Of a DNA stretch of 64,000 nt, positions 7,455 through 31,056 are shown one piece after another. Below the pieces are notes generated by a model. The model saw only the letters and a list, made by a program, of their open reading frames with translations. It did no database searches and had not been told where the DNA came from. A program made the translations under genes and the position numbers. The stretch comes from a virus. Numbering within the stretch: position 1 is the first letter of the stretch; the number at the start of each line of letters is the position of its first letter. The stretch lies in the IMG/VR virus record IMGVR_UViG_3300042975_000098. One strand, given 5' to 3'.

Positions 7455-8573
7455 ATGAGCGATTACATCGAACTATACAAGAAGTACCGGCCACGCACAT
7501 GGGCCGACGTCATCGGACAGGACACCATCGTCAACGACCTGCGGGCATCGGTGGCGAACGGCCGCACCGCGAACGTGTACCTGTTCTCCGGCCAGCGCGG
7601 CTGCGGCAAGACCAGCACCGCGTTCATCCTCGCGAAGGCCGTGAACTGTCCGAACGCGGTCGACGGCACGCCCTGTAATACGTGCGACGTGTGCCGCGCC
7701 ATCGACGCCGACCGCGCGTTCGGGTTCCACTACATATCCATGGCCAACGACGGTTCCGTGGACTCCGTGCGCTCCATCGTCGACAAGTCGCGCCAACGGG
7801 CGGCCGACATGAAACGGCCCGTGTGGGTCCTCGACGAGGTGCACAACCTCAGCAAGGCCGCGTTCGACGCGCTGCTCATACCGCTGGAGAAGAAGGACAT
7901 CAACTCCATGTTCATTCTCTGCACCACGGAGATCAACAAGATCCCCAAGACGATACTCAGCCGCGTCCAGCACCGATCGTTCCACCTCGTGGGCATCCGC
8001 GACCTCGGCGAACTCTGCGTCCGCGTGTGCAAGGACGAGGGCATAAGCATCTCCAAGGAGCCGGTGGCCGACCCGCTGGCATCATCCGCAGTGTCCATCC
8101 AGCAGATCAAGGCGGCCATCCGCGCCGCCGGGTACAACCTGTCCGGCGGCAGCGTCCGCGACACGCTGTCGAGCCTCGAACGGCTCCTGTCCACGGGCGA
8201 GACGCCGGGGCTTCACTCGGCGGACCTCACCAAGGCCATCTACGCGGACATGGACATCGCTGCCGCGTTCGCCGCCATCACCGCGGACGGTCGCGATGGC
8301 GGCGACGCCGGGCTGCTGGCGAACGCCATCATGGCCGACACGAGGTCGCTGCTGCTGCTCGCCAACGGGGACAAGGACGCCGCATCGGCCCTCATGTTGC
8401 CGGACCCGGCCGCGATCGCCCGCGGCATCGGCAACGACGCGCTCGCACGGTGCTTCCTCACGGCCGGCGAGATCATCCGCGATCTCACGTTCGCCGACGA
8501 TACGCAGACGGTCCTCCAACTGGGCGTCGTGAAGATCATCATGTTCCTCCGGTATCACGCCGCGAAGAAGTAG
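7455..8573 (+). CDS. dnaX: DNA polymerase III subunit gamma/tau-like clamp loader
   Basis: LYKKYRP.TWADVIGQ, Walker A GQRGCGKT, C4 zinc motif, DEVH, TILSRVQ. Confidence 0.92.
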   Translation: MSDYIELYKKYRPRTWADVIGQDTIVNDLRASVANGRTANVYLFSGQRGCGKTSTAFILAKAVNCPNAVDGTPCNTCDVCRAIDADRAFGFHYISMANDGSVDSVRSIVDKSRQRAADMKRPVWVLDEVHNLSKAAFDALLIPLEKKDINSMFILCTTEINKIPKTILSRVQHRSFHLVGIRDLGELCVRVCKDEGISISKEPVADPLASSAVSIQQIKAAIRAAGYNLSGGSVRDTLSSLERLLSTGETPGLHSADLTKAIYADMDIAAAFAAITADGRDGGDAGLLANAIMADTRSLLLLANGDKDAASALMLPDPAAIARGIGNDALARCFLTAGEIIRDLTFADDTQTVLQLGVVKIIMFLRYHAAKK

Positions 8574-9105: not shown

Positions 9106-9179
9106 CAGCGATTAGGAAAGCTTGGTAATCCGCCTGCCCTGGGAGCAGGAGACCGTGGGTTCGAATCCCGCATCGCTGA
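9106..9179 (+). tRNA. tRNA-Pro(TGG), C33
   Basis: CAGCGAT/ATCGCTG acceptor, CCTGC-ccTGGga-GCAGG, GGTTCGAATCC. Confidence 0.9.
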
Positions 9180-9200
9180 CGCGGCCCGTCATGTGGTCCG

Positions 9201-9242
9201 CGACACGCCGGCGGTTGACAACGCTGGCCGTCGCGGTATGAT
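9201..9242 (+). promoter_or_regulatory. Sigma70-type promoter with CGACACGCCGGCG motif
   Basis: TTGACA-16-TATGAT. Confidence 0.7.
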
Positions 9243-9668
9243 GGGGACATAACTTAACGACGAGGACCGGTTCGCACCGGTGGCGGAGAGCGCGCGACGG
9301 CGACGGTACCGGAATGTGAAAGAACTACCGTGTTTGGTCACGATGACCACCATGCCTCGTCAGGCGCGGTGAGCAGCGACGGAGCGCCTGAACACAGGAT
9401 CGAGCATGGGGAAGACAACGCCCTCAACGATCGCCGACGAAAGCCGACGAAGGATTACATATGTACTCCGGGCACGCGTTGATAACCCATGAACGGGACA
9501 CCAACGTCAATCGTGAAGCAATGACGGCCCGTAGCCATTAAACAAGCTTCTTCAGATGAACACATATGCAAGCATGATGCTGACGCAGGTCGTGCGCGCT
9601 GATCAAGATTCCGAGCAGTCGGATAGAAAAACATGCCGTCATGCCGGCGGACGTTAAACGCCGGTTAT

Positions 9669-9759
9669 TCCGTAGGGTTGACCTTTGTCGGTTGTCATGC
9701 GCGTGACTGTTAATCGAGCGTATCGAGAGACATCGCTGGTTCGATCCCAGCCTACGGAG
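9669..9759 (+). tRNA. Atypical 91-nt tRNA-Asn(GTT)-like gene
   Basis: TCCGTAG/CTACGGA acceptor, ctGTTaa loop, T arm; distorted D and variable regions. Confidence 0.5.
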
Positions 9760-9923
9760 CGTGAGCGGGGTGAGCACGATGGCCTGGGGGTCAGTAAAGA
9801 ATCCCCTCGCCGATTTTCTCACGACCCGGCGATGGATAAAGACAGAGCCATGGCCCCACCCGCAGTCCATCACATGTACACCTGAAGTCGGCTCATAGGA
9901 ATCATGATCGCCGACGATAGCAC

Positions 9924-9999
9924 ACGGGCATAGTTCATCGGTACAGAACATCACTCTGATACAGTGATAAGGGTAGTTCGACTCTACCTGCCCGTACCA
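9924..9999 (+). tRNA. tRNA-Ile(GAT), CCA encoded
   Basis: ACGGGCA/TGCCCGT, TCACT-ctGATac-AGTGA. Confidence 0.88.
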
Positions 10000-10077
10000 A
10001 AGCCGCCGGCGAGCATACGGTTCTCCGCGAGCGCTCGCCAGCGGCCTAGTCCTCATGATGACGTTAAAAGCATGAAC

Positions 10078-10151
10078 GCCTCTGTAGTTTAACCGGATTA
10101 AAATCACTGACTACGAATCACTAGTTCCGGGTTCGACTCCCGGCGGGGGCA
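10078..10151 (+). tRNA. tRNA-Arg(ACG)
   Basis: GCCTCTG/CGGGGGC, ctACGaa loop, T arm. Confidence 0.82.
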
Positions 10152-10263
10152 CGCAATCCAACAAGAATGTTGGCAGAGACCAGAAATAACGTGGTTAGCG
10201 GCAGACGACGAGGATCGGTTCTTCACGGACTATGGAGTGTTCGATTCCTCAGAGTCTGCCAAT

Positions 10264-10336
10264 GGCTGTGAAGCTCTACGGTTTGAGCACCTTCCCGTCG
10301 AGAAGGATGAAGCGGGTTCGACTCCCGGCATAGTCG
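10264..10336 (+). tRNA. tRNA-Asp(GTC), C33
   Basis: GGCTGTG/CATAGTC, CCTTC-ccGTCga-GAAGG. Confidence 0.85.
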
Positions 10337-10339
10337 CTT

Positions 10340-10451
10340 GTATCCGGCATCTATACTTCAGGAATGGCTCCTAGCCATTCCATGATGCCCGGTGAGAAAC
10401 ACATGGGGACGTGAAAACAGCACGAGAACATGCACGCCTCACCGTCTGTTT
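10340..10451 (+). ncRNA. Unclassified pseudoknotted structured RNA, copy 1
   Basis: Four stems covary with copy 2 (12413-12523); loop AAACAG complementary to 3' CTGTTT. Confidence 0.8.
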
Positions 10452-10538
10452 ACTTTACGGCGGTGATGTTACGACCAATGAGGCGGGCGAAAACTCATAA
10501 AGCATCTCACATGATGTCCGTTAAGCATCATTTCTTAT

Positions 10539-10609
10539 TCCCCTGTAGTTCAACGGCAGAACGAATGACTGTTAATCATTTAATGAAAGTTCGATTCTTT
10601 CTAGGGGAG
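10539..10609 (+). tRNA. tRNA-Asn(GTT)
   Basis: TCCCCTG/TAGGGGA, AATGA-ctGTTaa-TCATT. Confidence 0.9.
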
Positions 10610-10625
10610 CGTCAGCACACTCCGC

Positions 10626-11018
10626 ATGGAGAACCTGAAATGGGTCACTGGCAGCACGTACGGTTCAAAATGGAACCATTCCGCGCAGCAGGAAGCAATC
10701 GCGCACGCCACCGCCCGGATCGGCGTGACCACGAAACAGGTAAACCCAAAGAACACCTCGCAATCATGCTCACGATGCGGCGCCAGAATCACGCATGACA
10801 CGAGCAAGAGAACAATCCACTGCCCCGCATGCGACCTCACCATGGACAGGGATTATAACGCAGCAATCAACATCGCACACATCACGAGAACGCACCCCGC
10901 GAGTCATTACGGTAATCGCGGGGGTAAGTGTAGCGGACCGGATGGTCCGCAGCTTATGGGGCTGGGTGCTCCTGTGGGCGCGCTAGGAAGTGGTACTGTT
11001 ATAGGTATTGCAACTTAG
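10626..11018 (+). mobile_element. tnpB: IS200/IS605-family TnpB C-terminal remnant
   Basis: VNPKNTSQSCSRCG...CPACDLTMDRDYNAAINI zinc ribbon plus RuvC-III motif; N-terminal part absent. Confidence 0.85.
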
Positions 11019-11061
11019 TGCGTCACCGTATGATTACATAGTTAACAAGTAATCATCATAT

Positions 11062-11099
11062 TGTGGATTGGCAGAGCGGCAATTGCGGCTGACTGTAGA
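11062..11099 (+). pseudogene. 5' half of a tRNA-Tyr(GTA)
   Basis: GTGGATTGGCAGAGCGGC..TGCGGCTGACTGTAGA matches the 5' half of the Tyr tRNA at 13321; no T arm follows. Confidence 0.65.
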
Positions 11100-11156
11100 T
11101 GCGCTTTTACCACTGCGTGGATTGCTTGTCCTCATGATGACAATAAAAGCATGAAC

Positions 11157-11229
11157 GCCTCTATAGTTCAATTGGTAGAACACCGGACTTTTACTCCGGG
11201 TGTTGTCTGTTCGAGTCAGATTGGGGGCA
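11157..11229 (+). tRNA. tRNA-Lys(TTT)
   Basis: CCGGA-ctTTTac-TCCGG; GCCTCTA/TGGGGGC. Confidence 0.85.
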
Positions 11230-11548
11230 CGCAATCCATGTAGTTTTGGATTACATTCAAGACTTAAGTTCCTTGTTATTAGCGCAAAAATAAAAATACT
11301 ATATTACCGCGCGACATGCCGATTGAACGCAGATTTGCGCTCATGAGAACTTCGTGTTATGATAATAATCATTAACGCGCTGGTTGATAACATAATAGTG
11401 ATTAGTTGTGGGGCTTGTTCATCAGGTGTGTCGGTGATGATTTATACAGGTTCGATTCCTGTTACAAGCACGATGATCCACGGGTTCGGCTTGTTACCTG
11501 ACTCTTGTGTGGGTCACGTCGGGAGTCACTAACCCGACGTTAAACTCT

Positions 11549-11637
11549 GGTTGATTGGCCGAGCATGGTTTATGGCACCTGTCTTGAAAACAGGCGTGGG
11601 GCAACACCCACCGGGGGTTCGAATCCCTCATCAACCG
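11549..11637 (+). tRNA. tRNA-Ser(TGA)
   Basis: CCTGT-ctTGAaa-ACAGG, long variable arm, G73. Confidence 0.92.
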
Positions 11638-11749
11638 CGCAGTTCCAGTAGGCTTTGAGTTAGTCGCGTAGTTAACTACTACCATGGTTAGTTGTGACCG
11701 CTAACGAGCCGAACGCATATAGCAACCGAGCGGGTGCAAGGCCCGCGAT

Positions 11750-11823
11750 GCTTCCATAGCCCAATAGGTAGAGGCAGTAGATTTAGGATCTACTCAGTGC
11801 GGGTTCGACTCCTGCTGGAAGCA
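11750..11823 (+). tRNA. tRNA-Leu(TAG), short variable loop
   Basis: GCTTCCA/TGGAAGC, GTAGA-ttTAGga-TCTAC. Confidence 0.9.
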
Positions 11824-11826
11824 CAA

Positions 11827-11915
11827 TGTCTGAATCGCTTACCAGAAGAGGAGCAGCGGCCTAAAAGCCGTGCCGGCTCATTACCGACCCGTAGGGTGAG
11901 ACTCCCACCAGACAG
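11827..11915 (+). pseudogene. Degenerate class II tRNA-like gene (possibly Leu-derived)
   Basis: TGTCTG/CAGACA ends, GCGGC-ctaaaa-GCCGT 6-nt loop, variable arm, variant T loop TGAGACT; partial second copy after 12068. Confidence 0.4.
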
Positions 11916-11998
11916 GAACCAAGAAGCCATTATGACGATAATGCGCGGATTGGCTCACCCTTGCGTTATGATGATAACGTGTCGACATAACGCAAGGT

Positions 11999-12068
11999 GC
12001 TTCCATAGCCCAACAGGTAGAGGCGGCAAGGAACCGTTACAGTGCTGGTTCGAGTCCAGCTGGAAGCA
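11999..12068 (+). pseudogene. tRNA-Leu pseudogene with deletion in the anticodon arm
   Basis: Paralog of the 11750 and 14213 tRNAs; arm reduced to GGC-AAGGA-ACCGTT. Confidence 0.7.
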
Positions 12069-12213
12069 CGATGTCCGAATAGCTTGTGTCCGGTCATGCC
12101 AGCGGCCTACAAGCCGCTCCGGTTCATTACCGGTATACGTTCGCCGCCGATGACACATGCCGGCGAACTGGTCACCATTCATCTTGTTGCGTGGCCGCGA
12201 GCATGAAACCGCG

Positions 12214-12256
12214 CGACACGCCGGCGATTGAAAACGTTCAACCATTGTGGTATCTT
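12214..12256 (+). promoter_or_regulatory. Sigma70-type promoter with CGACACGCCGGCG motif
   Basis: TTGAAA-17-TATCTT with extended TG. Confidence 0.6.
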
Positions 12257-12340
12257 GTAATCATAGCGCAACGGGAGGAATGAACATGAGCACGGAAGCC
12301 TGAACAGCTGACCGATGAGCATTGATTGAATGCCACGGCA

Positions 12341-12409
12341 GTTCATGATTCCAATAGGGGAATCGTCGGCGGTAACGCTGACGAGCGGGTTCGAGTCCCG
12401 TCATGAACA
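12341..12409 (+). ncRNA. Anticodon-less tRNA-like RNA, copy 1 (69 nt)
   Basis: GTTCATG/CATGAAC acceptor, D-like hairpin, 8-bp stem with GGTAAC loop, canonical T arm. Confidence 0.75.
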
Positions 12410-12412
12410 CTA

Positions 12413-12523
12413 GTATCCGGTGTCCATACATAGAGTCGGCCCCTGGCCGGCTCACGACACCCGGTCGGAAACGCATGGGAGCATGAAAACAGCATGTGAG
12501 CATGAACGCCCGACCGTCTGTTT
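12413..12523 (+). ncRNA. Unclassified pseudoknotted structured RNA, copy 2
   Basis: Compensatory changes relative to 10340-10451. Confidence 0.8.
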
Positions 12524-12574
12524 CTTTTCCCGCGCGACGCAATGCGCGGGTCGCGTCCCCTAGGGGCGCGGGTG

Positions 12575-12643
12575 GTTCATGGTTCCGATAGGGGAATCGC
12601 CGGCGAAAGCACCGGCGAGCGGGTTCGAGTCCCGTCATGAACA
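12575..12643 (+). ncRNA. Anticodon-less tRNA-like RNA, copy 2 (69 nt)
   Basis: Same fold as 12341-12409; central stem capped by a GAAA tetraloop. Confidence 0.75.
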
Positions 12644-12968
12644 CTAGAGTCTGATTCGCTGTGGTGGCGATGAAAAAGCTCAAGACTCGATACGCAAGCA
12701 TGAATGCATAGAGCAATAGTTTCATGTAGCTGCTGGTGCTGCTTAAACAGGTCGCGGTAAACGAATAACCAGATGATTCACGGGCGGCATCCCGTGATGA
12801 CATGAAAAGCATGAGGCCAACCACCGATTGCTTCCTGTTCCCTACGTTAGTGGGGTCCTAGGATAGTGGCAAGATGGTGAAACCCCGTCGAGGAGCATGA
12901 GAGCGGATGACATGATTAATCATTCGCGTGGCAGGAATCTAAAACCCTGCCACCTATGCTCCGTTTAT

Positions 12969-13042
12969 GCTTCTATGGCTCAATTGGTTAAAGCAACTGA
13001 CTCTTAATCAGTGGATTTCGGGTTCGAGTCCCGATGGAAGCA
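12969..13042 (+). tRNA. tRNA-Lys(CTT)
   Basis: ACTGA-ctCTTaa-TCAGT. Confidence 0.92.
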
Positions 13043-13065
13043 CGTATCAACATATGTTGATATGT

Positions 13066-13211
13066 GGGGCGACCAAGGTGGTGAACAGCGGGAGTGGTTA
13101 ACCGTGAGAAACCATAGGTCAGCAGTGGTGGCGGGTTAACCGTCCGTCACTGAGAAAGCCCGTGCGCTGTCAAAGCGATACGGTATCACGGTTCGAATCC
13201 GTGGCGCTCCA
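13066..13211 (+). ncRNA. 146-nt tRNA-Ala-like / mini-tmRNA-like RNA
   Basis: GGGGCG.../CGCTCC-A acceptor with G3.U70 and A73, perfect T arm CACGG-TTCGAAT-CCGTG, large internal insert, no anticodon arm. Confidence 0.6.
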
Positions 13212-13320
13212 CTATGCCGGTGCCCTCCCATGTTCGCACAATACCATGGGTTCACATCGGCGATGCCGTGTGTACGACCGCGAGAGCGGGCGGATGCCGG
13301 GCATGGGTTCATGGATATTT

Positions 13321-13402
13321 GGTGGGTTGGCAGAGTTGGTCAAATGCGGTCGGCTGTAAACCGACTCCTACGGGTACGGGGGTTCGAATCCCTCACCCAC
13401 CA
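13321..13402 (+). tRNA. tRNA-Tyr(GTA)
   Basis: GTCGG-ctGTAaa-CCGAC, variable arm. Confidence 0.92.
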
Positions 13403-13519
13403 CGACGGGTACTGGCAGGCATCTTGGATATCGGGAATAGCCATAAGGTTGATTACCGGAAGCGATTTCCCGAAGCTCCGCCCCTCATCATGACGCCGAT
13501 TTGATCACTCATGATGTAT

Positions 13520-13590
13520 ACGCCTATGGTGCAGTGGCAGCACAAGAGCTTCCAAACCTCCTGATCTGGGTTCGATTCCTGGTGGGCGTG
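13520..13590 (+). tRNA. tRNA-Trp(CCA) (alternative reading Gly(TCC))
   Basis: A1-U72 and G73 favour Trp; anticodon stem has mismatches (AGAGC-ttCCAaa-CCTCC). Confidence 0.6.
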
Positions 13591-13595
13591 CGTAT

Positions 13596-13668
13596 GGTCC
13601 CATAGAGCAACGGTCACCTCGCCTGATTCTCAATCAGGAGATTCCGGGTTCGAATCCCGGTGGGACTA
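13596..13668 (+). tRNA. tRNA-Glu(CTC)
   Basis: CCTGA-ttCTCaa-TCAGG. Confidence 0.92.
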
Positions 13669-13832
13669 CTGGTCATCGGCAATACGCGAACGACGGGATA
13701 CCTGCCGCTCACGGTGCCAACGGGCGTTGGCGATGACATGGTTTGCTGGGAGCCGAAGACCAGCCGGTATGATGCCGCCGCGGAATCACCGCGAGCGACA
13801 CTGTTCATCGAATCTCCGTCAAGGATTCGAAT

Positions 13833-13905
13833 GGCCACGAGGTTCTACGGTTTGAACACCTGCCTGTCGAGCAGGACCAAGCGGGTTCGACTCCCGTCGT
13901 GGTCG
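13833..13905 (+). tRNA. tRNA-Asp(GTC)
   Basis: CCTGC-ctGTCga-GCAGG; paralog of 10264. Confidence 0.88.
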
Positions 13906-14078
13906 CGATCATCGTCATGCCGATGCCAAGCGCCGGCGACAATGAATCGCCGACACCGGTCGGCGATGGCAGTCGGGTTACTCCTCAAACGCGAACGGTT
14001 CGACTCCGAGCGCGAGCGAGTGGAACGCTGCCATCAACGCCGGCGGGCACGCACATGTCGCCATGCCCGTCGGCGTTC

Positions 14079-14152
14079 GCTCGTCTAGCCCAATCGGCAG
14101 AGGCGACGGTTTCAAAAGCCGTACAGTGCGGGTTCGAATCCCGCGGCGAGCA
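14079..14152 (+). tRNA. tRNA-Leu(CAA), short variable loop
   Basis: ACGGT-ttCAAaa-GCCGT. Confidence 0.9.
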
Positions 14153-14212
14153 CGCGCGTTGCCAACGAACGCCATCGATTGTCGAGCGATGGGGCGCCAT
14201 ACAGCGAGTCAA

Positions 14213-14285
14213 GCTTCCGTAGCCCAACGGCAGAGGCAGTGGTCTAAGGAACCACACAGTGCGAGTTCGAGTCTCGCCGGGAGCA
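14213..14285 (+). tRNA. tRNA-Leu(AAG), A34
   Basis: GTGGT-ctAAGga-ACCAC. Confidence 0.88.
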
Positions 14286-14286
14286 C

Positions 14287-14426
14287 GATGACGGAGGTGA
14301 TGATCGGGGTTACTTCTCATGTTAAGGGGGAGGTTCCGGGTTCGAATCCCGGTCGGTTGGCCTTGCGCCTTCCGGTAGCTCAACGGCAGAGCGCCAATAT
14401 TCCCCGGTCGGTTTTTACCCGTCATC
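14287..14426 (+). ncRNA. Circularly permuted tRNA-like / YrlA-like RNA, copy 1
   Basis: Outer stem enclosing, in order, anticodon-like hairpin, T arm, looped acceptor stem and D arm. Confidence 0.8.
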
Positions 14427-14431
14427 AACAT

Positions 14432-14518
14432 GGTCGGTTGTCCGAGTCCGGTTTAAGGAACCTGTCCAGAAAACAGGCATGGCCGACGCCATCGGGGGTT
14501 CGAATCCCTCACCGACCG
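14432..14518 (+). tRNA. tRNA-Ser(AGA), A34, C33
   Basis: CCTGT-ccAGAaa-ACAGG, long variable arm, G73. Confidence 0.88.
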
Positions 14519-14985
14519 CGCGCCGTTGATAATCGCTCATCATGTGGTATAAATAGACGCTGATGTTTTGTACGTAATGGTATAATACATCACGCATTGA
14601 TGCGAGGAATCGTGTCAATACGCAGCGTGATGGTAATGAGCAGCGTAACTCCTCGACTCATGACGGTGAATCAATTATTAGCGTCCCCAGCACGATTAAC
14701 GCTGGTTAGATGCAAGACACCGCCGAGGAGGGATTACTACTTACTACTCACCGCGTCATGCAACCGGGATGGCGGCTCTCGCCTCCTACCCGGTAGAGGG
14801 TACTGCAGTGCACCCAGTGAGGCGCGAGCCTCACGAACACTAAGCGTAGCGCAATTTGTACTATCGCTTAATAACTGTTATACTCATGATGGGCGACGAT
14901 CAACGCCCGATGTTCCCCACGCTAACGGGGGTTCATCACGTTGCAGTTCCAGCTGTATCTATCCCCCACGCAAATGGGGGTGTAC

Positions 14986-15059
14986 GCTTCCATAGCTCAA
15001 TTGGTTAGAGCATCCGCCTCTTAAGCGGAGGGTTGTGGGTCCGAGTCCCACTGGGAGCA
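14986..15059 (+). tRNA. tRNA-Lys(CTT)
   Basis: TCCGC-ctCTTaa-GCGGA; T loop TCCGAGT. Confidence 0.88.
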
Positions 15060-15060
15060 C

Positions 15061-15261
15061 GATGACGGAGGTGATGATCGAGGTTACTTCCATGATAAGG
15101 GGAGGTTCCGGGTTCGAATCTCGGCCGGTCGGCCTTAGCCGGTCGCCGGCTTGCTTGGCGGTTCTCGCTTCGCGGTTCGAATCCCGGTCGGTTGGCCTTG
15201 CGCCTTCCGGTAGCTCAATGGTTAGAGCGCCCTAACCCTCGATCGGTTTTTACCCGTCATC
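15061..15261 (+). ncRNA. Circularly permuted tRNA-like / YrlA-like RNA, copy 2, with internal duplication
   Basis: Same ends as copy 1 with compensatory change in the outer stem (GATCGAGG/CCTCGATC); two T-arm motifs. Confidence 0.75.
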
Positions 15262-15266
15262 AACAC

Positions 15267-15355
15267 GGTCGGTTGTCCGAGTCCGGTTTAAGGAGCCTGC
15301 TTCGAATACAGGTGTGGCCGCAAGACCACCGGGGGTTCGAATCCCTCACCGACCG
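15267..15355 (+). tRNA. tRNA-Ser(CGA)
   Basis: CCTGC-ttCGAat-ACAGG; paralog of 14432. Confidence 0.88.
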
Positions 15356-15405
15356 CTAGCGGTGCGCCATCGATCGATGCCCGCGCCGCCGATATCGCCG
15401 TCAAC

Positions 15406-15479
15406 GGGGGTTTAGCTCAGTCGGTTAGAGCAAACGACTCATAATCGTTCGGTCCAGGGTTCAAGCCCCTGAATCCCCA
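15406..15479 (+). tRNA. tRNA-Met/Ile2(CAT)
   Basis: AACGA-ctCATaa-TCGTT; elongator-type. Confidence 0.88.
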
Positions 15480-15496
15480 CACGTGGTATGTATCTT

Positions 15497-15570
15497 GTCG
15501 ACGTAGCTCAGATGGCCAGAGCGCCGAGTCGAAGCCTCGGAGGTCGTTCGTTCGATGCGAACCGTCGACA
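15497..15570 (+). tRNA. tRNA-Phe(GAA), C33
   Basis: CCGAG-tcGAAgc-CTCGG; GTCGACG/CGTCGAC. Confidence 0.85.
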
Positions 15571-15628
15571 CTGGGGAGCGGTCAGCCGCTCCAGCCCGCG
15601 ATCGGCATCAGTCGAGGGCATTAACCAT

Positions 15629-15711
15629 ATGTCGGCATCAGATTGGTGACTCAAGCGCTCTCCAAAAGCGTCGCCCCTCGGGGCTTGCAGGTTCGAATCC
15701 TGCCCGGCGTG
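15629..15711 (+). tRNA. tRNA-Trp(CCA) with long variable arm
   Basis: GCGCT-ctCCAaa-AGCGT, GCCCC/GGGGC variable stem, weak D arm. Confidence 0.65.
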
Positions 15712-15786
15712 CTCATTCCCCTGTTTGACTGATCGACGGCTCATAGTATGATGATGAGCAACTTGCCAATCAATCAGGGGGGGACA

Positions 15787-16350
15787 ATGAAACCGATCGT
15801 CTGCCATGGCGATATCACCACCATGAACGTGGATGCGATAGTCAACGCAGCCAACAGTGAGCTCGCGCGGGGCCGCGGCGTGTGCGGAGCCATTTTCGCC
15901 GCCGCCGGTGACGACGCCGGGCGATTACAGGACGAGTGCTTCTCGAAAGCGCCCGTACGCCCCGGCGGCGCCGTGCTGACGAAAGCTTACGGTCTGCCCG
16001 CGCGATTCATCATCCACGCGGTCGGCCCGGTGTACGACCCTGCCGACGCCGCCGGCAGCGAGCGGCTTCTCCGCTCAACGTATGATGCCGCGCTGGCGAT
16101 AGCCGACGAGCATCATATGGGCAGCGTCGCGTTCCCGCTGATATCCTCGGGGATCTACGGTTATCCTCATGATGACGCGCTGGCGATAGCGCTCGACGCG
16201 CTGGCAGGTCATCGCAATCGGAATGAACGGCATATGGATGTTTACCTTGTCCTGTTCGATTCCTCGCGCGAAGCCGTCCCATCATGGTGGCGGCGCGCCA
16301 TCGGGAACGTCATCGCCTCCATACTCCAACGGCAGAGAGTGCGGGCCTAA
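15787..16350 (+). CDS. Macro domain protein (YmdB-like ADP-ribose hydrolase)
   Basis: GDIT, DAIVNAAN, GRGVCGAI, IIHAVGP, AFPLISSGIYGYP. Confidence 0.92.
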   Translation: MKPIVCHGDITTMNVDAIVNAANSELARGRGVCGAIFAAAGDDAGRLQDECFSKAPVRPGGAVLTKAYGLPARFIIHAVGPVYDPADAAGSERLLRSTYDAALAIADEHHMGSVAFPLISSGIYGYPHDDALAIALDALAGHRNRNERHMDVYLVLFDSSREAVPSWWRRAIGNVIASILQRQRVRA

Positions 16351-16387
16351 ACCCCGCTGGTTCCCGGTTCGAATCCGGGTGGGGGCA
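16315..16387 (+). tRNA. tRNA-Leu(TAA), C33; overlaps the 3' end of the macro gene
   Basis: GCGGG-ccTAAac-CCCGC; GCCTCCA/TGGGGGC. Confidence 0.82.
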
Positions 16388-16687
16388 CTTCGGTTAGTTC
16401 AATCGTCGCATTCGCGTCGCGATCCCAATCACTCGCTTCGCGGAGGTCGGCGCCAAGTCCTGACGGCGATTGGGAGCCATCAGGGATGAGGTAGAACGCC
16501 GGGAGCATATCCCGGAGATGTCGTGCGAATCGACGCCAATCACGTATGCGGTCGCGGCCATCGACGTCGCAGGCGCATCATTCGACTCCATGCGCTGGGC
16601 ATGGGACGGCCGCACAGGCCGTCAGCGGGTTCGACTCCCGGTCGGGTGACGATGGCGGGAGCGGGCGGTCGCTCCCGCCGTCATTTC

Positions 16688-16761
16688 GCGGACATAGCTT
16701 AGCTGGTTAAAGCGCGACCTTGCCAAGGTCGAGACCGCGGGTTCGAGTCCCGCTGTCCGCT
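16688..16761 (+). tRNA. tRNA-Gly(GCC)
   Basis: CGACC-ttGCCaa-GGTCG. Confidence 0.95.
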
Positions 16762-16817
16762 CGATGACGCACGCCGGAGACAATCATCGCCGGCACCGTC
16801 AGCATCAGTGTACGTTC

Positions 16818-16891
16818 GCTCACGTGGCGCAGCCGGTCAGCGCGCCTGCATCACACGCAGGAGGTCCGTGGTTCGATCCCACGCGCGAGCA
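16818..16891 (+). tRNA. tRNA-Val(CAC)
   Basis: CCTGC-atCACac-GCAGG. Confidence 0.9.
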
Positions 16892-16931
16892 CGACCACGG
16901 TCGATGACGATCATCGCCGACCGTTGGCAAT

Positions 16932-17002
16932 GCGGGTATGGCTTAATGGCAGAGCATCGTCCTTCCAAGTCGATCATGCGGGTTCGATTCCCGCTGCCCG
17001 CT
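16932..17002 (+). tRNA. tRNA-Gly(TCC)
   Basis: ctTCCaa loop, GCGGGTA/TGCCCGC, U73. Confidence 0.9.
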
Positions 17003-17149
17003 CGATGATCACCCGGAACCTGCGCTGCGGCCGCGTTCCGTTAGCGGCATGGGAACCTGGTGATCCATACCATGCACTGCGTCCCCGTTGGGCGGCAAGC
17101 GCCGCCCGCGCAGCATACCGACCGGAGCTCAGGGACGGCTCCGGTCACT

Positions 17150-17220
17150 GCGGATGTGGTTCAACGGCAGAACTGCGGCTTCCCAAGTCGCCGGCGCGGG
17201 TTCGACCCCCGCCATCCGCT
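17150..17220 (+). tRNA. tRNA-Gly(CCC)
   Basis: GCGGC-ttCCCaa-GTCGC. Confidence 0.92.
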
Positions 17221-17232
17221 CGCATCGGTCAT

Positions 17233-17305
17233 GCTCCCGTGGCCCAGTGGTCAGGGCGCCTCGCTTACACCGAGGACATCATGGGTTCGAATCCCATCGG
17301 GAGCA
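17233..17305 (+). tRNA. tRNA-Val(TAC)
   Basis: CCTCG-ctTACac-CGAGG. Confidence 0.92.
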
Positions 17306-17316
17306 CGATCGCTCAC

Positions 17317-17392
17317 GGGGATGTGGCTCAACAGGTAGGGCATCTCGCCAGCAACGAGAAGGCAGCGGGTTCGACCCCCGCCATCTCCACCA
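17317..17392 (+). tRNA. tRNA-Ala(AGC), A34, C33, CCA encoded
   Basis: G3.U70, TCTCG-ccAGCaa-CGAGA. Confidence 0.88.
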
Positions 17393-17510
17393 CGCCGACG
17401 ACCAGCCGTCGATCGAAACCGGTTCGATGGCGTTCGGCGTCATGTATGCGCGCCCGCGGGAATCACACCGTCCGCGCGCGCCCGCGATCGGCTACGGAAC
17501 CCGATCACAT

Positions 17511-17583
17511 GCCCGCATAGCTCAACCGGCAGAGCGGCGCTCTCGTAAAGCGCAGGTACGCGGTTCGACACCGCGTGCGGGCT
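17511..17583 (+). tRNA. tRNA-Thr(CGT)
   Basis: GCGCT-ctCGTaa-AGCGC. Confidence 0.92.
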
Positions 17584-17651
17584 CGATGGCATCGATGACA
17601 CGATGTCGTTCGCCATCGGCGGTCGGCTCCACGCCGGCCATCGATGGCATC

Positions 17652-17724
17652 GTCCGCGTGGCGCAGTTGGCAGCGCGCCTGCATGACCCGCAGGTGGTCC
17701 GTGGTTCGATTCCACGCGCGGACA
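17652..17724 (+). tRNA. tRNA-Val(GAC)
   Basis: CCTGC-atGACcc-GCAGG. Confidence 0.88.
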
Positions 17725-17760
17725 CTGCTCGGCGATGATTTCGCAGGTCGCCGAGAATAT

Positions 17761-17833
17761 CGTGGCGTAGCTCAGTTGGCAGAGCACCCGGCTCATAACC
17801 GGGAGGGGGATGGTTCGATCCCATCCGCCACGA
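17761..17833 (+). tRNA. tRNA-Met(CAT)
   Basis: CCCGG-ctCATaa-CCGGG; paired C1-G72. Confidence 0.88.
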
Positions 17834-17869
17834 CGACGCTCGCGGTCTAATCGTCGACCGTCAACACAC

Positions 17870-17942
17870 TGTCCGATGGTGAAACTGGCATCACGCCCGG
17901 CCCTGAACCGGGAGACTGCAGGTTCGAATCCTGCTCGGACAA
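17870..17942 (+). tRNA. tRNA-Gln(CTG), C33
   Basis: CCCGG-ccCTGaa-CCGGG; U1-A72. Confidence 0.88.
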
Positions 17943-17962
17943 CGACCTGGTATAATGCCAGC

Positions 17963-18391
17963 ATGGCTAACAAGAAGACGACGTTATCGTTGATCGCCGC
18001 GCTGGCGGCGGTCATCATCCTGTATTTCGTACCGCAGGGCGCGTCATACCTCACCTCGCACATAGGATTCCTTCGACCGGTGCAGACCGGTGTGGAATCC
18101 ACGAGCGCGTTGGCTCTGCGCAACGGCGTCATGGTCGGCAAGGCCACGCTGACGACGGACTCGCCCGGCAGCGGCAAGACGGTGACCGTGAACATGGAAC
18201 TGTACCGTAACGGCGGCAAGGTGCGCGAATGCTCGCAGGCGTCGTACCCGTTGTCATCATCGCGAACGAACGTCATCGTCAACTGCGGTATGGCCGACGG
18301 CGTGAAGGCCGGTCGCAGTGGCGGGTACACGGTCAAGGTCATCAAGGCCCGCGTGATATCGATGCCATCCGGTGACAGTAGCAATGATTAA
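17963..18391 (+). CDS. Hypothetical exported protein (leaderless)
   Basis: TATAAT-N6-ATG; N-terminal hydrophobic signal or anchor; two Cys. Confidence 0.75.
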   Translation: MANKKTTLSLIAALAAVIILYFVPQGASYLTSHIGFLRPVQTGVESTSALALRNGVMVGKATLTTDSPGSGKTVTVNMELYRNGGKVRECSQASYPLSSSRTNVIVNCGMADGVKAGRSGGYTVKVIKARVISMPSGDSSND

Positions 18392-18432
18392 CGACTTGCC
18401 GGCGCCGGTCATCGGCCGACGCCGGTTCCCTT

Positions 18433-18505
18433 GGGGATGTAGCTCAACTGGTAGAGCGCCTCGTCCGCAACGAGGAGGCAGTGGGTTCGACCCCCATCAT
18501 CTCCA
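18433..18505 (+). tRNA. tRNA-Ala(CGC), C33
   Basis: G3.U70, CCTCG-tcCGCaa-CGAGG. Confidence 0.88.
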
Positions 18506-18580
18506 CTCCGCCCGCATCCGAATGTTGATGCTGGCGGCGCGCCGCCAGCGAGGGCGCGAACGATGTGATATGATGTACTT

Positions 18581-18669
18581 GGATGGGATTGCAACTCGGT
18601 GAATGCTAATCGGTTTGCTAAACCGGTGCGGCCGCAAGACCGCCGTGGGTTCGACTCCCACCCCATCCG
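18581..18669 (+). tRNA. tRNA-Ser(GCT)
   Basis: ttGCTaa loop, long variable arm, G73. Confidence 0.88.
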
Positions 18670-18761
18670 CGGGCGCCTAACGCACAGAAGCGCCGTAACA
18701 ACCCGAGTGCATAGTCAGCAGCCGCGGGCGATGATGATCATCGCCGGCGATTGGTGGCACC

Positions 18762-18836
18762 GCCTTCGTAGCTCAACGGATTAGAGCACCGGTCCTCGGA
18801 ACCGGGTTGTAGTGGGTTCGACACCCACCGGGGGCA
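18762..18836 (+). tRNA. tRNA-Arg(TCG), C33
   Basis: CCGGT-ccTCGga-ACCGG. Confidence 0.87.
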
Positions 18837-18907
18837 CGTCGCGGGGCGGCCGACTGGTCGCACCCGATTGGCCGCGGTCGTCCGTTCGCTGGCGATCGCT
18901 GCCCATG

Positions 18908-18978
18908 TGGTCCATAGCTCAATGGCAGAGCGACGGCTTGTGGCGCCGTATATCCGGGTTCGATCCCCGGTGGTCCAA
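18908..18978 (+). tRNA. tRNA-His(GTG)
   Basis: ACGGC-ttGTGgc-GCCGT; G-1 present at 18907 but position 73 is A. Confidence 0.85.
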
Positions 18979-18980
18979 CT

Positions 18981-19054
18981 CGCGGGGTAGAGCAGTTCGG
19001 TAGCTCGCCGGCCTCATAAGCCGGAGGTCACGGGTTCGAATCCCGTCCCCGCCA
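18981..19054 (+). tRNA. Initiator-like tRNA-fMet(CAT)
   Basis: CGCGGGG start, unpaired C1, GAGC/GCTC D stem; anticodon stem GGC/GCC instead of GGG/CCC. Confidence 0.88.
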
Positions 19055-19085
19055 CGATAAGCCGGTTCGTCCGGCGATTCAACAT

Positions 19086-19156
19086 GCTGGGATAGCCAAG
19101 CGGCAGGGCGACGGTCTGCAAAACCGTACAGGCGGGTTCGACTCCCGTTCCCAGTT
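19086..19156 (+). tRNA. tRNA-Cys(GCA)
   Basis: ACGGT-ctGCAaa-ACCGT, U73. Confidence 0.92.
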
Positions 19157-19195
19157 CGGATGCGACCGTCGGCATCGTCGGCGATCACGTTCATT

Positions 19196-19266
19196 TGCCC
19201 ATTCGTCCATTGGCAGGACGGGAGCCTTTGGTGCTCCAGAAGGTGGTTCGATCCCATCATGGGCAG
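19196..19266 (+). tRNA. tRNA-Gln(TTG)
   Basis: GGAGC-ctTTGgt-GCTCC. Confidence 0.92.
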
Positions 19267-19267
19267 C

Positions 19268-19340
19268 GCGCCGGTAGCTCACTGGATAGAGCGCCCGTCT
19301 ACGGAGCGGGAGGTCGTGGGTTCGAATCCCACTCGGCGCA
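19268..19340 (+). tRNA. tRNA-Arg(ACG)
   Basis: CCCGT-ctACGga-GCGGG. Confidence 0.93.
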
Positions 19341-19485
19341 CTCGGGTTCATTTCGGAGCCACAAGTACTGGGTCGCCGAATGGCGGTAACGAGGGTCGGC
19401 ATCGGTTGCCGGCCGTTCGCTAGGATTCCTTTGTCGTGGTGAACCTGACCGCCCCGTCGAACCGATCGGCGGGGTCTTTCCTTAT

Positions 19486-19561
19486 GGTCCGGCGGTGTGC
19501 GGGGATTCGCGCATACGCGACCTTCAATCGCGTGGTTCGGGTTCGATTCCCGATCGGACTA
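19486..19561 (+). tRNA. tRNA-Glu(TTC), C33, atypical D arm
   Basis: CGCGA-ccTTCaa-TCGCG; GGTCCGG/TCGGACT. Confidence 0.75.
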
Positions 19562-19588
19562 CGATTTTCCATACGATATTAACCGCTC

Positions 19589-20152
19589 ATGACCGATGAG
19601 CAAGCAAACAGCGATGACGTTGACGATGCCGATGGCCTCTGGCCGTCGACCGCTGGCGACGGCGTTCCACCGGCGGTCACGGAGTCCATAGCCAAACACA
19701 AGGCGCTGGCGGTTACACGCCGGGGGCGGATGCGGTTCAGAAGATGCATGAGCACGTTGAAATGGAATCGCTGGTTCAGCACGCGCGACATCACACGCGC
19801 CTATGTCCGCAATGATGGTCGAACCCTGGTGTTCCTCAGCGTGATGTACGCCGGCGTCGGTCTCACGTCGCTCGTATGCGGGCACGGCGTCATCAGAATC
19901 GCGTTCAGCGTGGCATTCCTCCTTGGCGCTCCGGTGGCGTTCCTGCTGGGGCGGGGCTCGTTGGCGGCCGCGTGCGATACGGCCGATGACGCCACGCTCA
20001 TGGACATGGCGCTGAAGCTCGCATGGGCCACCACATGGGAGCGTCTTCGCATGCTCCGCGTCACCGGCGCCGGCGATGACGGGAGCGAACACGCCGCCGA
20101 TGGCATCAAGCCGCCGGCGGACGACGGGCGGCGGCGAGAACCGTTATCATGA
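19589..20152 (+). CDS. Hypothetical membrane protein
   Basis: Two hydrophobic segments; CGATATT-N8-ATG upstream. Confidence 0.65.
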   Translation: MTDEQANSDDVDDADGLWPSTAGDGVPPAVTESIAKHKALAVTRRGRMRFRRCMSTLKWNRWFSTRDITRAYVRNDGRTLVFLSVMYAGVGLTSLVCGHGVIRIAFSVAFLLGAPVAFLLGRGSLAAACDTADDATLMDMALKLAWATTWERLRMLRVTGAGDDGSEHAADGIKPPADDGRRREPLS

Positions 20153-20246
20153 TGCGATCGGCGGCGACACGCCGGCGGAATCGATGTCGATATTCGTGGT
20201 ATACTTCTGTATGGTCGCGGGAACGTGATCATTGATAATCGAACAG

Positions 20247-20320
20247 GCCCGTGTAGCTCATCTGGATAGAGCGTTTTCCCCCTAAGAAAAAGGCAGTCGG
20301 TTCGAGTCCGACCGCGGGCA
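20247..20320 (+). tRNA. tRNA-Arg(CCT), C33
   Basis: TTTTC-ccCCTaa-GAAAA. Confidence 0.87.
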
Positions 20321-20391
20321 CGATTACGGTGGCGACACCGTGATCAACGTCGGCGCGGGTCCGCCCTTCATGGGCACCCCGTCGGCACCTC

Positions 20392-20465
20392 GCCTCCGTG
20401 GCCTAACTGGATAAGGTTGTGAGCCTCTACCTCACCGATTGTGGGTTCGAGTCCCACCGGGGGCA
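20392..20465 (+). tRNA. tRNA-Arg(TCT), C33
   Basis: GTGAG-ccTCTac-CTCAC. Confidence 0.87.
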
Positions 20466-20505
20466 CAGTGATTTGCGGATCATCGTCATTCAGGAGACCC
20501 GCAAC

Positions 20506-20576
20506 GCCCGATTAGCTCAATGGGAGAGCAACCGCCCTGTAAGCGGTGGACGTCGGTTCGATACCGGCATCGGGCT
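20506..20576 (+). tRNA. tRNA-Thr(TGT), C33
   Basis: ACCGC-ccTGTaa-GCGGT. Confidence 0.87.
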
Positions 20577-20781
20577 CGTGGACGGCGTGAACGTGATGCG
20601 CCCCGTGGTACCCGGGGAGCGCGATCGCGATCGCCGTCAACATGGGGGTTGACAGGCCGGATGCGTTGTCGAACGTTACTTCTTGCAACGAAAAAACACG
20701 TTCGACGGGTTTTTCACCGGCACGACCCCAACGCATAAGCCATCGATCGGCAGCGAGAGCCACCGATCGACGGCCGTCCCT

Positions 20782-23256: not shown

Positions 23257-24296
23257 ATGAACAACACAAGGATATGGATAATCGTCAACGGGGTGTACGA
23301 TGATGACGGGTATTATCCCGGCGACCCGCTGCTCGATGCGACCGGCAGGACCATATGGTTCGATGATGGCGATGCCGCCGGCGACGTCGCCAAACGACTA
23401 TCGGCGCGGTCACGCGAGGCGTTCAGGCGCACCGCAGGTGATTGGGTTCAAAGCGCTTCTATGGTGATTCACCAATCACATACCAGGCGATGGAGGTCGG
23501 GCGGCTGGCGGCGGACCCCAGCGGCGACGAAATCGTCGACGAGATCACCGGTATCAATGCCGACCGATGGCCATACGGCATGGACATTGACGCGCATGAG
23601 CATGTGCTCATTGAAGAGGCGCGCCGACGATTCCTCGACTCACCCGAGCATGACGCCATCATCAAACAGTTCCGCGATTACTGCGCGCCAAGCGTGAAGG
23701 CATTGCGCGTCGATTACCCGGATATCAAGGATGACGATTTCACCGTCATGTTCCCCAACGATCATGACGTCACCATCGAGTATGACCCGTTGCGATCCGG
23801 CTATTCCATCTGCGTCGCCACCGTGGCCAACCCGGCGGGCGGCTCGCCGGCGATCACGGACACCCAGTCGACGGACCCAATGGATTACGTCGACGAGGCC
23901 GACATGTGCGCCGAGGGCCGGCATGACTGGACGGACGATGACTCGCCAAGCGCCTACGCCGACTGGAGGGCGAGACGCGCGGCCAGGACGCTGGGCGTGA
24001 CCATCGGCGAGACCATACCGATCAGTGCCGGTGCCGGCTTCCACATGGCCGGCACCGTTTACGTCGATGATGGCGGCGCGATCAAGTTCGACGCATTCGA
24101 TGATGAAGAGGCCGGTGGATGGGAGGCTGGCGTCATGTTCCGCGACGGTGACCGTTGGTGCGTGGTGTTCCATGATTTCGCCGCCGCTCCGGGCACAGGC
24201 GGAACCGCCGATGAGGCGATAGCCGCGTTCCTGCTGCGCAATGGCGACAGCAAGGCGCTGGGCCCCGCGCGAGATTCACACAGGTGCGACAGTTGA
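23257..24296 (+). pseudogene. Hypothetical gene apparently split by a frameshift near 23445
   Basis: Leaderless start at 23257; acidic coding frame continues in ORF 23442-24296. Confidence 0.5.
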
Positions 24297-24799
24297 GCGG
24301 CGTCGATGATGACGACGATCGCCCGCGAACCGGCGTGTACTCGTGGGATGAGTCGTTCATGCTCATGGCGCTGGCGATCGCCGGCAGGTCGAAGGACCCT
24401 CGCACGCAGGTCGGCGCGGTGTTCGTGAACGCCGATCACCGCGTCATGAGCGTCGGCTATAACGGCGCGCCGCGCGGACTGCCTGACGCGGACATGCACT
24501 GGCGGCGTCACGCCGACGATCCCGCGTTGACGAAGTACCCGTATGTCATTCATGCGGAGCGTAACGCGATTCTGAACTACCGGGGACTATTGTCTGATTT
24601 CCTCGGTTCGACCCTGTACGTGACCTTGTTCCCCTGCCATGAGTGCGCGAAGTCGCTGGCGCAGATCGGCGTCGGCCGCGTGGCGTGGCTGAACGGTCCG
24701 CGACACGCCGATGACGCCGCGGTGGCGATGGATCTTCTGAAGTGGGCCGGGACGGCCGTCGACGCCGCCGCCATCGATATTCCCCCTGCATCACGATGA
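24284..24799 (+). CDS. dCMP deaminase (ComEB/CDA family)
   Basis: WDESFM.MA...RSKDP.TQVGA, GYNG, HAERNAI, TLFPCHECAK. Confidence 0.92.
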   Translation: MRQLSGVDDDDDRPRTGVYSWDESFMLMALAIAGRSKDPRTQVGAVFVNADHRVMSVGYNGAPRGLPDADMHWRRHADDPALTKYPYVIHAERNAILNYRGLLSDFLGSTLYVTLFPCHECAKSLAQIGVGRVAWLNGPRHADDAAVAMDLLKWAGTAVDAAAIDIPPASR

Positions 24800-24812: not shown

Positions 24813-25247
24813 ATGAGAATCGTCATGAGGGTGCTCGGCATACTGGTGGCTTCGCTGCTGGTCATGGCCGTAGCGTTGAACGCGGCGGGGTATGGCATTC
24901 CCGGCTACCATACCCTGTACGCCTACGTCCATGACGTGAGCCCTGAGCGCGAGCCGGTTCGACTCGCCAGCGAGACCACGACGGTGACGGCGAAGGACAA
25001 CGGCTACGGCACGCAGCCATACGCCGAGAACATCCTCGTGAACGATTCGGATGAGAGGTATCTGATCCTTCGCATCGGGTTCGACGCCTACGGGTCGCCG
25101 GATTACAAGACCGGATCGTGCTCGCAGACGTTCATCAACGTGAAACCGCACTCGAGGATGAGGGTGATGGCGTTGTGCGCCGGCGGCGGCATCACGTCGA
25201 ACCGTGACGTGACGCTGATCGAGAAACCAAGGATATACGGGTACTGA
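24813..25247 (+). CDS. Hypothetical exported protein
   Basis: GGAGG RBS, signal peptide-like N-terminus. Confidence 0.7.
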   Translation: MRIVMRVLGILVASLLVMAVALNAAGYGIPGYHTLYAYVHDVSPEREPVRLASETTTVTAKDNGYGTQPYAENILVNDSDERYLILRIGFDAYGSPDYKTGSCSQTFINVKPHSRMRVMALCAGGGITSNRDVTLIEKPRIYGY

Positions 25248-25354
25248 TCGGCGGCGATCGCCGCCGCCCGCCGCCGATGATGACGCGCGGCCGGGGACGA
25301 TTCCGCGCGTTCCGATCAAACTTATAGAAAATAACTAAGGAAGCGGTAAAACCA

Positions 25355-25730
25355 ATGAGAACCACGCTTATGATCGTATTCGCCCTGCTGGCGGTCGCCG
25401 AGATGGCCACGGGCGTCATCACCACCGAGAACCACCGGCCGCAGATCAAGCACGTCGCGGATGCGTGCGGGTTCCTGGCGTTCGCCCTCGCGGCCGGCGT
25501 ATGGCCGGCGTCATCGTGGGCGGGCGTCGGCGCGCTGATCCTCGGGTGCGCCGGCATCGTCGCCGGCGTGTTCCTCGCGTCCTCGGACGAGAGGGCCGCC
25601 GCCGCCGACAAGCGCCGGCTGGGAGGAGAGCGAGGCCAACGCGATGCTGACGGGCGCGAACATGGACATGGTGCGCGCCGAGGCCACCCGACTGGTCGAG
25701 CAGGAGTCGGCGCGCGGCCGGAACCGTTGA
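25355..25730 (+). pseudogene. Small membrane protein, copy 1 (frameshift near 25620)
   Basis: Differs from the intact copy 29881-30255 by a 1-nt insertion. Confidence 0.65.
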
Positions 25731-25805
25731 GCAGTATGACATCCACGCCCCCGACATCTGTTAGATGACTGTCGTAACAGAGAACGGGCAGGATCGGAGC
25801 ATGTG

Positions 25806-26495: not shown

Positions 26496-26531
26496 CGATA
26501 TTGCCCACGCGATCCACGGGAGGGCAATCAC

Positions 26532-26858: not shown

Positions 26859-26890
26859 ATCGTCCGCCCCTGACGGTATCATTGGTGATC

Positions 26891-27783: not shown

Positions 27784-27834
27784 AACGTATGTGGCACGCG
27801 GGTGGCGCGTGCTTGACCGATTGGAGAGTCTAAG

Positions 27835-31020: not shown

Positions 31021-31056
31021 CGATATTGCCCACGCGATCCACGGGAGGGCAATCAT

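Follow-up and report, generated by a model that had tools for sequence, protein, structure and literature searches.

Why do a dozen tRNA genes in one array encode cytidine at position 33? The uridine at this position (U33) forms the U-turn of the anticodon loop and is taught as near-invariant, and C is the only substitute that keeps most of the decoding function. The question is raised by a stretch of 64,000 nucleotides of the IMG/VR record IMGVR_UViG_3300042975_000098, referred to here as the window, which contains a long array of accessory tRNA genes. The array is of a known type, with 45 clustered calls on one strand of mobile DNA. Sequence comparisons make it reasonably likely that C33 reflects a mutation-selection balance: under GC pressure, a variant of mild cost would become fixed in redundant accessory tRNAs.

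The array and the genes concerned are given below. For entries without a further remark, C33 was assigned from the ARAGORN structure and comparison with L081, an independent assembly whose DNA is 92–94% identical to that of the window.

9106–20577, plus strand: tRNA gene array, 45 ARAGORN calls in 11.5 kb, one strand, all 20 amino acids represented
9106–9180, plus strand: tRNA-Pro(TGG), C33 at 9139; L081 also has C33
10264–10337, plus strand: tRNA-Asp(GTC), C33 at 10296; U33 in the paralogue at 13833
14432–14519, plus strand: tRNA-Ser(AGA), C33 at 14467; duplicate of the U33 gene Ser(CGA) at 15267
15497–15571, plus strand: tRNA-Phe(GAA), C33 at 15530
16315–16388, plus strand: tRNA-Leu(TAA) with a short variable arm, C33 at 16347
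17317–17392, plus strand: tRNA-Ala(AGC), C33 at 17349
17870–17943, plus strand: tRNA-Gln(CTG), C33 at 17902
18433–18506, plus strand: tRNA-Ala(CGC), C33 at 18465; anticodon TGC in L081, C33 retained
18762–18837, plus strand: tRNA-Arg(TCG), C33 at 18795
19485–19562, plus strand: tRNA-like remnant, degenerate, under the Rfam cut-off; reads as Glu(TTC) and has C33
20247–20321, plus strand: tRNA-Arg(CCT), C33 at 20280
20392–20466, plus strand: tRNA-Arg(TCT), C33 at 20425
20506–20577, plus strand: tRNA-Thr(TGT), C33 at 20537

The original prediction listed 13 tRNAs with C33. This holds for 12 intact genes, which according to their ARAGORN structures have C33 inside a normal seven-base anticodon loop; 11 of them score above the cut-off of the Rfam tRNA model (37–62 bits), and Leu-TAA is an ARAGORN call only. 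It does not hold for Glu(TTC), which scores 23.7 bits against a cut-off of 29 and has a poor Gly-TCC with U33 as its counterpart in L081, and is therefore treated as a remnant. The ARAGORN set minus two degenerate duplicates comprises 43 genes, so that C33 is found in 12 of 43 (~28%), and A33 or G33 in none; at a relaxed ARAGORN threshold of 70%, false calls ran into the hundreds. A Bifidobacterium chromosome has C33 in 0 of 56 tRNA genes (Fisher p=1.7e-5 against the window array). Between window and host, the anticodon loops differ at positions 32, 33, 37 and 38 in 11, 9, 6 and 14 of 39 genes, respectively.

Sequencing error is ruled out as the source of C33, as 10 of the 12 sites also have C33 in L081. 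That array has C33 in 13 of its 32 genes, ten of which are orthologous to C33 genes of the window, and it has C33 in Ser-TGA and fMet, where the window has U33. Homologous arrays had been proposed as a test, and they were found to carry C33 as well, not U33 alone. In addition to L081, the more distant relatives have C33 in 8/49 (G001), 4/38 (L085), 4/21 (L087), 3/18 (G037), 5/20 (G068) and 1/41 (G238) genes, while A33 and G33 occur in 0 of 230 family genes. C33 is a trait of the whole array family and no error. Several arrays pair one C33 and one U33 copy for the same anticodon. In eight other arrays, seven of them from named actinobacterial plasmids or phages, C33 is less frequent (11/223 versus 37/230 in the family, p=1e-4). 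Among the literature that could be searched, we found no paper describing tRNA arrays enriched in C33. Five sequencing runs contain 98–99% of the words of the window array, and may represent the source sample.

C33 also occurs sporadically outside such arrays. A D-arm-anchored pattern gave 18 C33 matches, 15 of them real tRNAs, in 236 Bifidobacteriaceae genomes, and 999 U33 matches in 61 genomes. On the chromosomes of eight Bifidobacteriaceae genomes of 0.8–1.6 Mb, a CAT tRNA with C33 occurs singly, and in G005 and G007 it is by elimination of the Ile2 type; host-type Val and Thr tRNAs with C33 were detected in a 1.1 Mb genome. Weak selection is to be expected in such small genomes, and the occurrence of C33 in them agrees with an allele of mild cost. 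The solitary Ile2-type loci are L294 and L302–L308 (genomes G005, G007 and G223–G229), and G006 has an Ile-TAT tRNA instead. An unrelated array on an Actinomycetota genome contig (L341) has C33 in 7 of 20 genes at 62% spacer GC.

The C33 genes are intact and under purifying selection. Divergence between the window and L081 amounts to 0 of 236 at invariant sites, 2.3% in stems, 7.6% in spacers and 10% at third codon positions. C33 genes differ at 1.4 positions per gene and U33 genes at 2.65, stem pairing is equal in both, and the T-arm invariants are unchanged. Lack of function or conservation, which had also been put forward as a test, is therefore not what the sequences suggest, with C33 genes as conserved as U33 genes. 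Position 33 itself changed in 2 of 32 true orthologues (Ser-TGA and fMet; p=0.014 compared with invariant sites), toggling between U and C only, at about the spacer rate; a third difference was left out, as it came from aligning Ser-AGA to its Ser-CGA paralogue. The ten C33 sites kept in L081 were not counted as evidence of selection for C, because a neutral divergence of 8–10% predicts fewer than one change.

Isotype does not predict C33: two arrays have C33 on the same anticodon in 10 pairs, compared with 9.3 in shuffles (p=0.44). Within genes, no link to C33 was found for codon-box strength (p=0.48), R35, G37, A38 or stem GC, and the links with C32 and with U34/A34 are weak and uncorrected. 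A candidate rule excluding C33 from Ile tRNAs, seen in the family, was contradicted by the held-out set described below.

Base composition does predict it. Across seven family arrays, in which the C33 fraction ranges from 2% to 28%, this fraction follows spacer GC perfectly (rho=1.0, exact p=2e-4). The idea was suggested by six of these arrays; G068 was fetched after it had been recorded, and fitted. C33 likewise follows C/(C+T) at fourfold sites (rho=0.89) with a logistic slope of 0.8, which is near 1 and therefore close to the expectation for mutation-selection balance. The implied selection against C33 (S) is 1.4–2.5 in all eight family arrays, a rough value that assumes equilibrium, and >5 in the host chromosome. 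A held-out set was formed by 68 arrays of unrelated viruses and genomes after dereplication; in it, C33 rises over successive spacer-GC bins from 1.1% to 3.8%, 5.6% and 14.6% (rho=0.41, p=5e-4). The trend is not simply one of descent, since L085, the nearest syntenic relative of the window after L081, is poor in GC and in C33, whereas the more distant G068 is rich in both. A parallel trend with GC is seen in the family arrays for stem GC (rho 0.89) and for C at positions 16/17 of the D-loop (rho 0.75, p=0.05). Lys and Asn genes of the held-out set have no C33 (0/92, p=0.027), a gap that is expected if C33 blocks the formation of N6-threonylcarbamoyladenosine at position 37 (t6A37).

The proposed balance would work as follows. 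Array tRNAs would mostly duplicate host tRNAs, leaving weak selection against C33 (S ~2, versus >5 in the host chromosome), and GC-biased mutation would fix C33 in a share of the genes set by the base composition of the element. Selection would still purge A33 and G33, and also C33 from tRNAs that need t6A37, namely those for Lys and, almost always, those for Asn. This predicts mature tRNAs that retain C33 and are charged, but decode slightly worse or have fewer anticodon-loop modifications. In yeast, tRNA-Leu(GAG) with C33 functions almost as well as its U33 version (bioRxiv 10.64898/2026.02.20.707122), and the Escherichia coli TsaBCDE enzymes are unable to modify a U33C tRNA (PMC8887486).

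Several results weigh against this explanation. The loosely constrained sites 32, 59, 60 and 47/48 do not track GC significantly, the family arrays are not fully independent, and the toggling rate is derived from two events only. Fourfold sites also reflect codon selection, which makes S rough. L081 contains an Asn tRNA with C33. The presence of C33 in Ile-GAT even of phage arrays that are rich in AT (6 of 45 Ile genes) suggests that C33 was selected at least there. S is 2.5–4 in other actinobacterial arrays whose GC is as high or higher, and the window, with 28% C33, far exceeds the 5.6% of unrelated arrays of 50–60% GC (p=1e-4). This excess of the family over the general trend, about fivefold, could be due to weaker selection or a more tolerant host just as well as to a benefit of C33.

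Further features of the window are given below.

7455–8573, plus strand: DnaX-like gene 5' of the array; synteny marker for finding homologous arrays
15748–16350, plus strand: Macro-domain (ADP-ribose hydrolase-like) gene within the array; L081 has one too
24284–24799, plus strand: dCMP deaminase gene; best solved match 2w4l, E=1e-36
35017–35378, plus strand: element-encoded tmRNA (ARAGORN and Rfam)
42180–44021, plus strand: plasmid-type replicase PF03090, common to the window and G001

Replicase, tmRNA and tRNA array thus lie on one element, and the window also encodes gyrase A, a sigma factor, DNA ligase, RecG, PhoH2 and a TadE-like protein. More than 25 of its open reading frames have homologues in G001, a 420 kb contig with terminal repeats and VirD4- and VirB11-like genes, in which the Terminase_6N profile had no match. 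A 558-aa protein encoded at 21497 has homologues named from Bifidobacterium, located in five Bifidobacteriaceae genomes. Because of the gene sharing with G001, the Bifidobacterium homologues and a combination of array, tmRNA and replicase like that of the plasmid pMP7017, the carrier is probably a conjugative megaplasmid of Bifidobacteriaceae of ~400 kb, and not an evident phage. DNA searches of plasmid and phage collections returned no close relative and no Bifidobacterium plasmid, a search with the Macro protein matched no viral locus, and a metagenome scan with the DnaX alignment found distant, host-type genes only.

The fivefold excess leaves room for a real benefit of C33 in this family, either a general escape, independent of isotype, from host tRNases or modifiers that recognise U33, or unrecognised C33-to-U33 editing. 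Such a benefit is conceivable, although we are inclined to doubt it; it would account for ~5x more C33 than in unrelated arrays of the same GC, and a general anti-nuclease device or editing would then constitute a new counter-defence mechanism. In its specific form, that C33 hides the tRNAs from host anticodon nucleases or toxins reading U33, with the plasmid as a resistant back-up pool whose benefit partly offsets the cost, we consider the idea unlikely. What speaks most strongly for a benefit is the family excess (37/230 versus 11/223, and 28% in the window versus 5.6%). Human RNase 2/EDN cleaves less when C33 is present (bioRxiv 10.1101/815803), and phage tRNA loop changes are tied to nuclease escape (PMC10264068). 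The pairs of C33 and U33 copies of the same anticodon, the PIN/VapC-like genes in two of three Bifidobacterium genomes tested and the Macro-domain gene inside the array would also fit. Yeast gamma-toxin, however, cleaves U33C tRNA as well as the wild type (PMC2275089), and phage T5 tRNA-Lys escapes cleavage by AriB through a change at position 39, the paper saying nothing of U33 (PMC12409363). C33 likewise goes unmentioned for bacterial Schlafen, a literature search for U33 and VapC was without result, and MazF/PemK had no match in the five records tested. Moreover, the twelve C33 loops have no motif in common, isotypes do not recur above chance (10 vs 9.3), which is an indirect test of targeting by host nucleases, and evasion of specific nucleases does not predict a dependence on GC. 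The nuclease-resistant replacements envisaged in the original prediction thus receive no positive support. Selection of C33 as an anti-determinant for anticodon-loop modifying enzymes, or for decoding tuning, e.g. through unmodified U34/A34 and wider wobble, has in our view a low probability; tRNAs with A34 need inosine to be useful, which counts against it. U33C is known to block TsaBCDE (PMC8887486) and Elongator (PMC11096365), and C33 in the family is mildly enriched with U34/A34 (18/79 vs 14/131, p=0.028; A34 p=0.04). This enrichment, however, is one of 16 tests, weakens to p=0.14 without the window and is absent from other arrays, and codon-box strength is unlinked to C33 (p=0.48).

If C33 were edited to U after transcription, as is C8 in Methanopyrus kandleri, the genomic base would be nearly neutral, and variation limited to U and C, spacer-like toggling, GC dependence and lack of isotype preference would follow equally. 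There is a precedent in CDAT8, which edits 30 of 34 tRNAs (PMC3695527). Nevertheless, we regard editing as improbable. C33 is far below the neutral expectation (S ~2) and avoided in Lys and Asn, neither of which efficient editing would require. The gene at 24284, taken in the original prediction for an ordinary dCMP deaminase, is indeed one, with solved dCMP deaminases (2w4l, E=1e-36) matching far better than TadA proteins (~1e-5), and it is the only deaminase found in the partly seen element of the window. The complete 420 kb G001 has a single PF00383 match, an orthologue of this dCMP deaminase, and a motif scan revealed no second credible deaminase, although very divergent ones could escape it. 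Another orthologue lies inside the array of G238, where C33 is found in 1 of 41 genes. With no editing enzyme in the complete relative, the suggestion that the C33 tRNAs are editing substrates gains no positive support. Decaying pseudogenes would be a highly improbable explanation. The Rfam scores of C33 genes are slightly lower (p=0.054), partly due to C33 itself, and remnants do exist in the array (11999, 14289 and 19485), but the C33 genes are as conserved as the U33 genes, their stems are intact, their T-arm invariants are unchanged, and A33 and G33 are absent from all 230 family genes.

Natural C33 tRNAs include the initiator tRNA-Met of metazoans and plants. These and yeast tRNA-Leu(GAG) have C33 in a working tRNA, but they are single fixed cases, unlike the window family, in which C33 spans many isotypes and switches between relatives. 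C8-to-U8 editing by CDAT8 in M. kandleri (PMC3695527) is similar in that many tRNA genes of GC-rich DNA have C where U is invariant. It concerns 30 of 34 genes and has an enzyme of its own, whereas 28% are affected in the window and no such enzyme was found. pMP7017, a conjugative megaplasmid of Bifidobacterium breve (PMC10832533), resembles the element in being large, in its tRNA array, which occupies one strand and lies close to a replicase gene and a tmRNA, and in having tRNAs diverged from the host set, 17 of 20 being highly transcribed in pMP7017. The window array differs in having ~43 genes for all 20 amino acids, and its family in having ~400 kb elements with their own gyrase, ligase, DnaX, sigma factor and RecG. 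Position 33, at which no search of that paper was aimed, is unmentioned in the tRNA passages considered. The L-arrays, such as the Anabaena trn operon (PMC8421152), are likewise accessory full tRNA sets on mobile DNA with a few pseudogenes, and 23 of the 26 tRNAs of that operon are aminoacylated; U33 and C33 are not mentioned in PMC8421152. No RtcB or TrcR-like gene was recognised in the window, in which no search was aimed at them. Nuclease-insensitive phage tRNAs, namely those of cluster C1 mycobacteriophages (PMC10264068) and T5 tRNA-Lys versus AriB (PMC12409363), also have loops that differ from those of the host, but the sections of these papers considered do not attribute the resistance to a C33 change. 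Ser tRNAs with GA-containing anticodons, avoided by those phages, are all present in the window array. Phage Colt has C33 in only 2 of 27 tRNAs.

The dependence on GC provides a null model hitherto lacking for the popular idea of nuclease evasion by loop mutations in phage and plasmid tRNAs: mutation pressure should be tested as the source of a loop that differs from its host counterpart before adaptation is claimed. Arrays with C33 in a quarter to two fifths of their intact tRNAs are natural material for valuing the U-turn base in bacteria. Ser-TGA and fMet are natural matched alleles, differing at position 33 between plasmids that are 92–94% identical.

Promoter and terminator counts are at chance level; two promoter matches (10–11/12) lie 5' of the array and a strong terminator-like site 3' of it at 20782. 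In one RNA run the share of the array is small, and the assembled contigs extend into the flanks, so that they may be DNA or precursor and bear on neither editing nor expression; the small share likewise does not point to a habitat.

The array has further unusual tRNAs. Four with Leu anticodons (11750, 14079, 14213 and 16315) are all 74–75 nt, without the long variable arm typical of tRNA-Leu. A pattern of the D-arm and Leu-TAG taken from these tRNAs matched, regardless of arm length, >120 viral and >120 genome contigs. The A34 anticodons Leu-AAG (14213), Ser-AGA (14432) and Ala-AGC (17317) are not in the host tRNA set, and G001 has Thr-AGT and Ser-ACT; such tRNAs would either require inosine or decode with unmodified A34. 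The gene at 15629–15712 has the Trp anticodon CCA, yet a long variable arm and an unusual D-arm, and is almost identical in L081. At position 38, Ile-GAT (9924), Lys-TTT (11157) and Arg-TCT (20392) carry C instead of the A of the host, a difference that may likewise prevent t6A37; the C38 of Ile-GAT was seen again in G001 and L085. The Asp tRNAs at 10264 and 13833 both combine A8 with G37, as recurs in G001 and L087. Two tRNA-like repeats (12341–12413 and 12575–12647), 88% identical, have a T-arm and no recognised anticodon arm. The block 9640–13100 has a spacer GC of 0.50, versus 0.60 elsewhere in the array, varies between relatives and resembles the L085 and L087 arrays; one of its eight tRNAs has C33, and a TnpB-like zinc-finger fragment lies at 10626. 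In G068, a tRNA with the CTA (amber) anticodon (L287, 10776–10850) is part of a chromosomally integrated array.

A toxin that ADP-ribosylates the tRNA anticodon is known (PMC13617354), and the Macro-domain gene at 15748–16350 might reverse ADP-ribosylation. Elsewhere in the window, 25146–34200 contains a tandem duplication of ~4.5 kb with 99.3% identity, 5 gaps and frameshift differences, which is either recent or an assembly artefact. The related element L087 encodes IF3 and a protein of the CCA-adding/poly(A) polymerase family at 11864–13858, directly 5' of its tRNA array.

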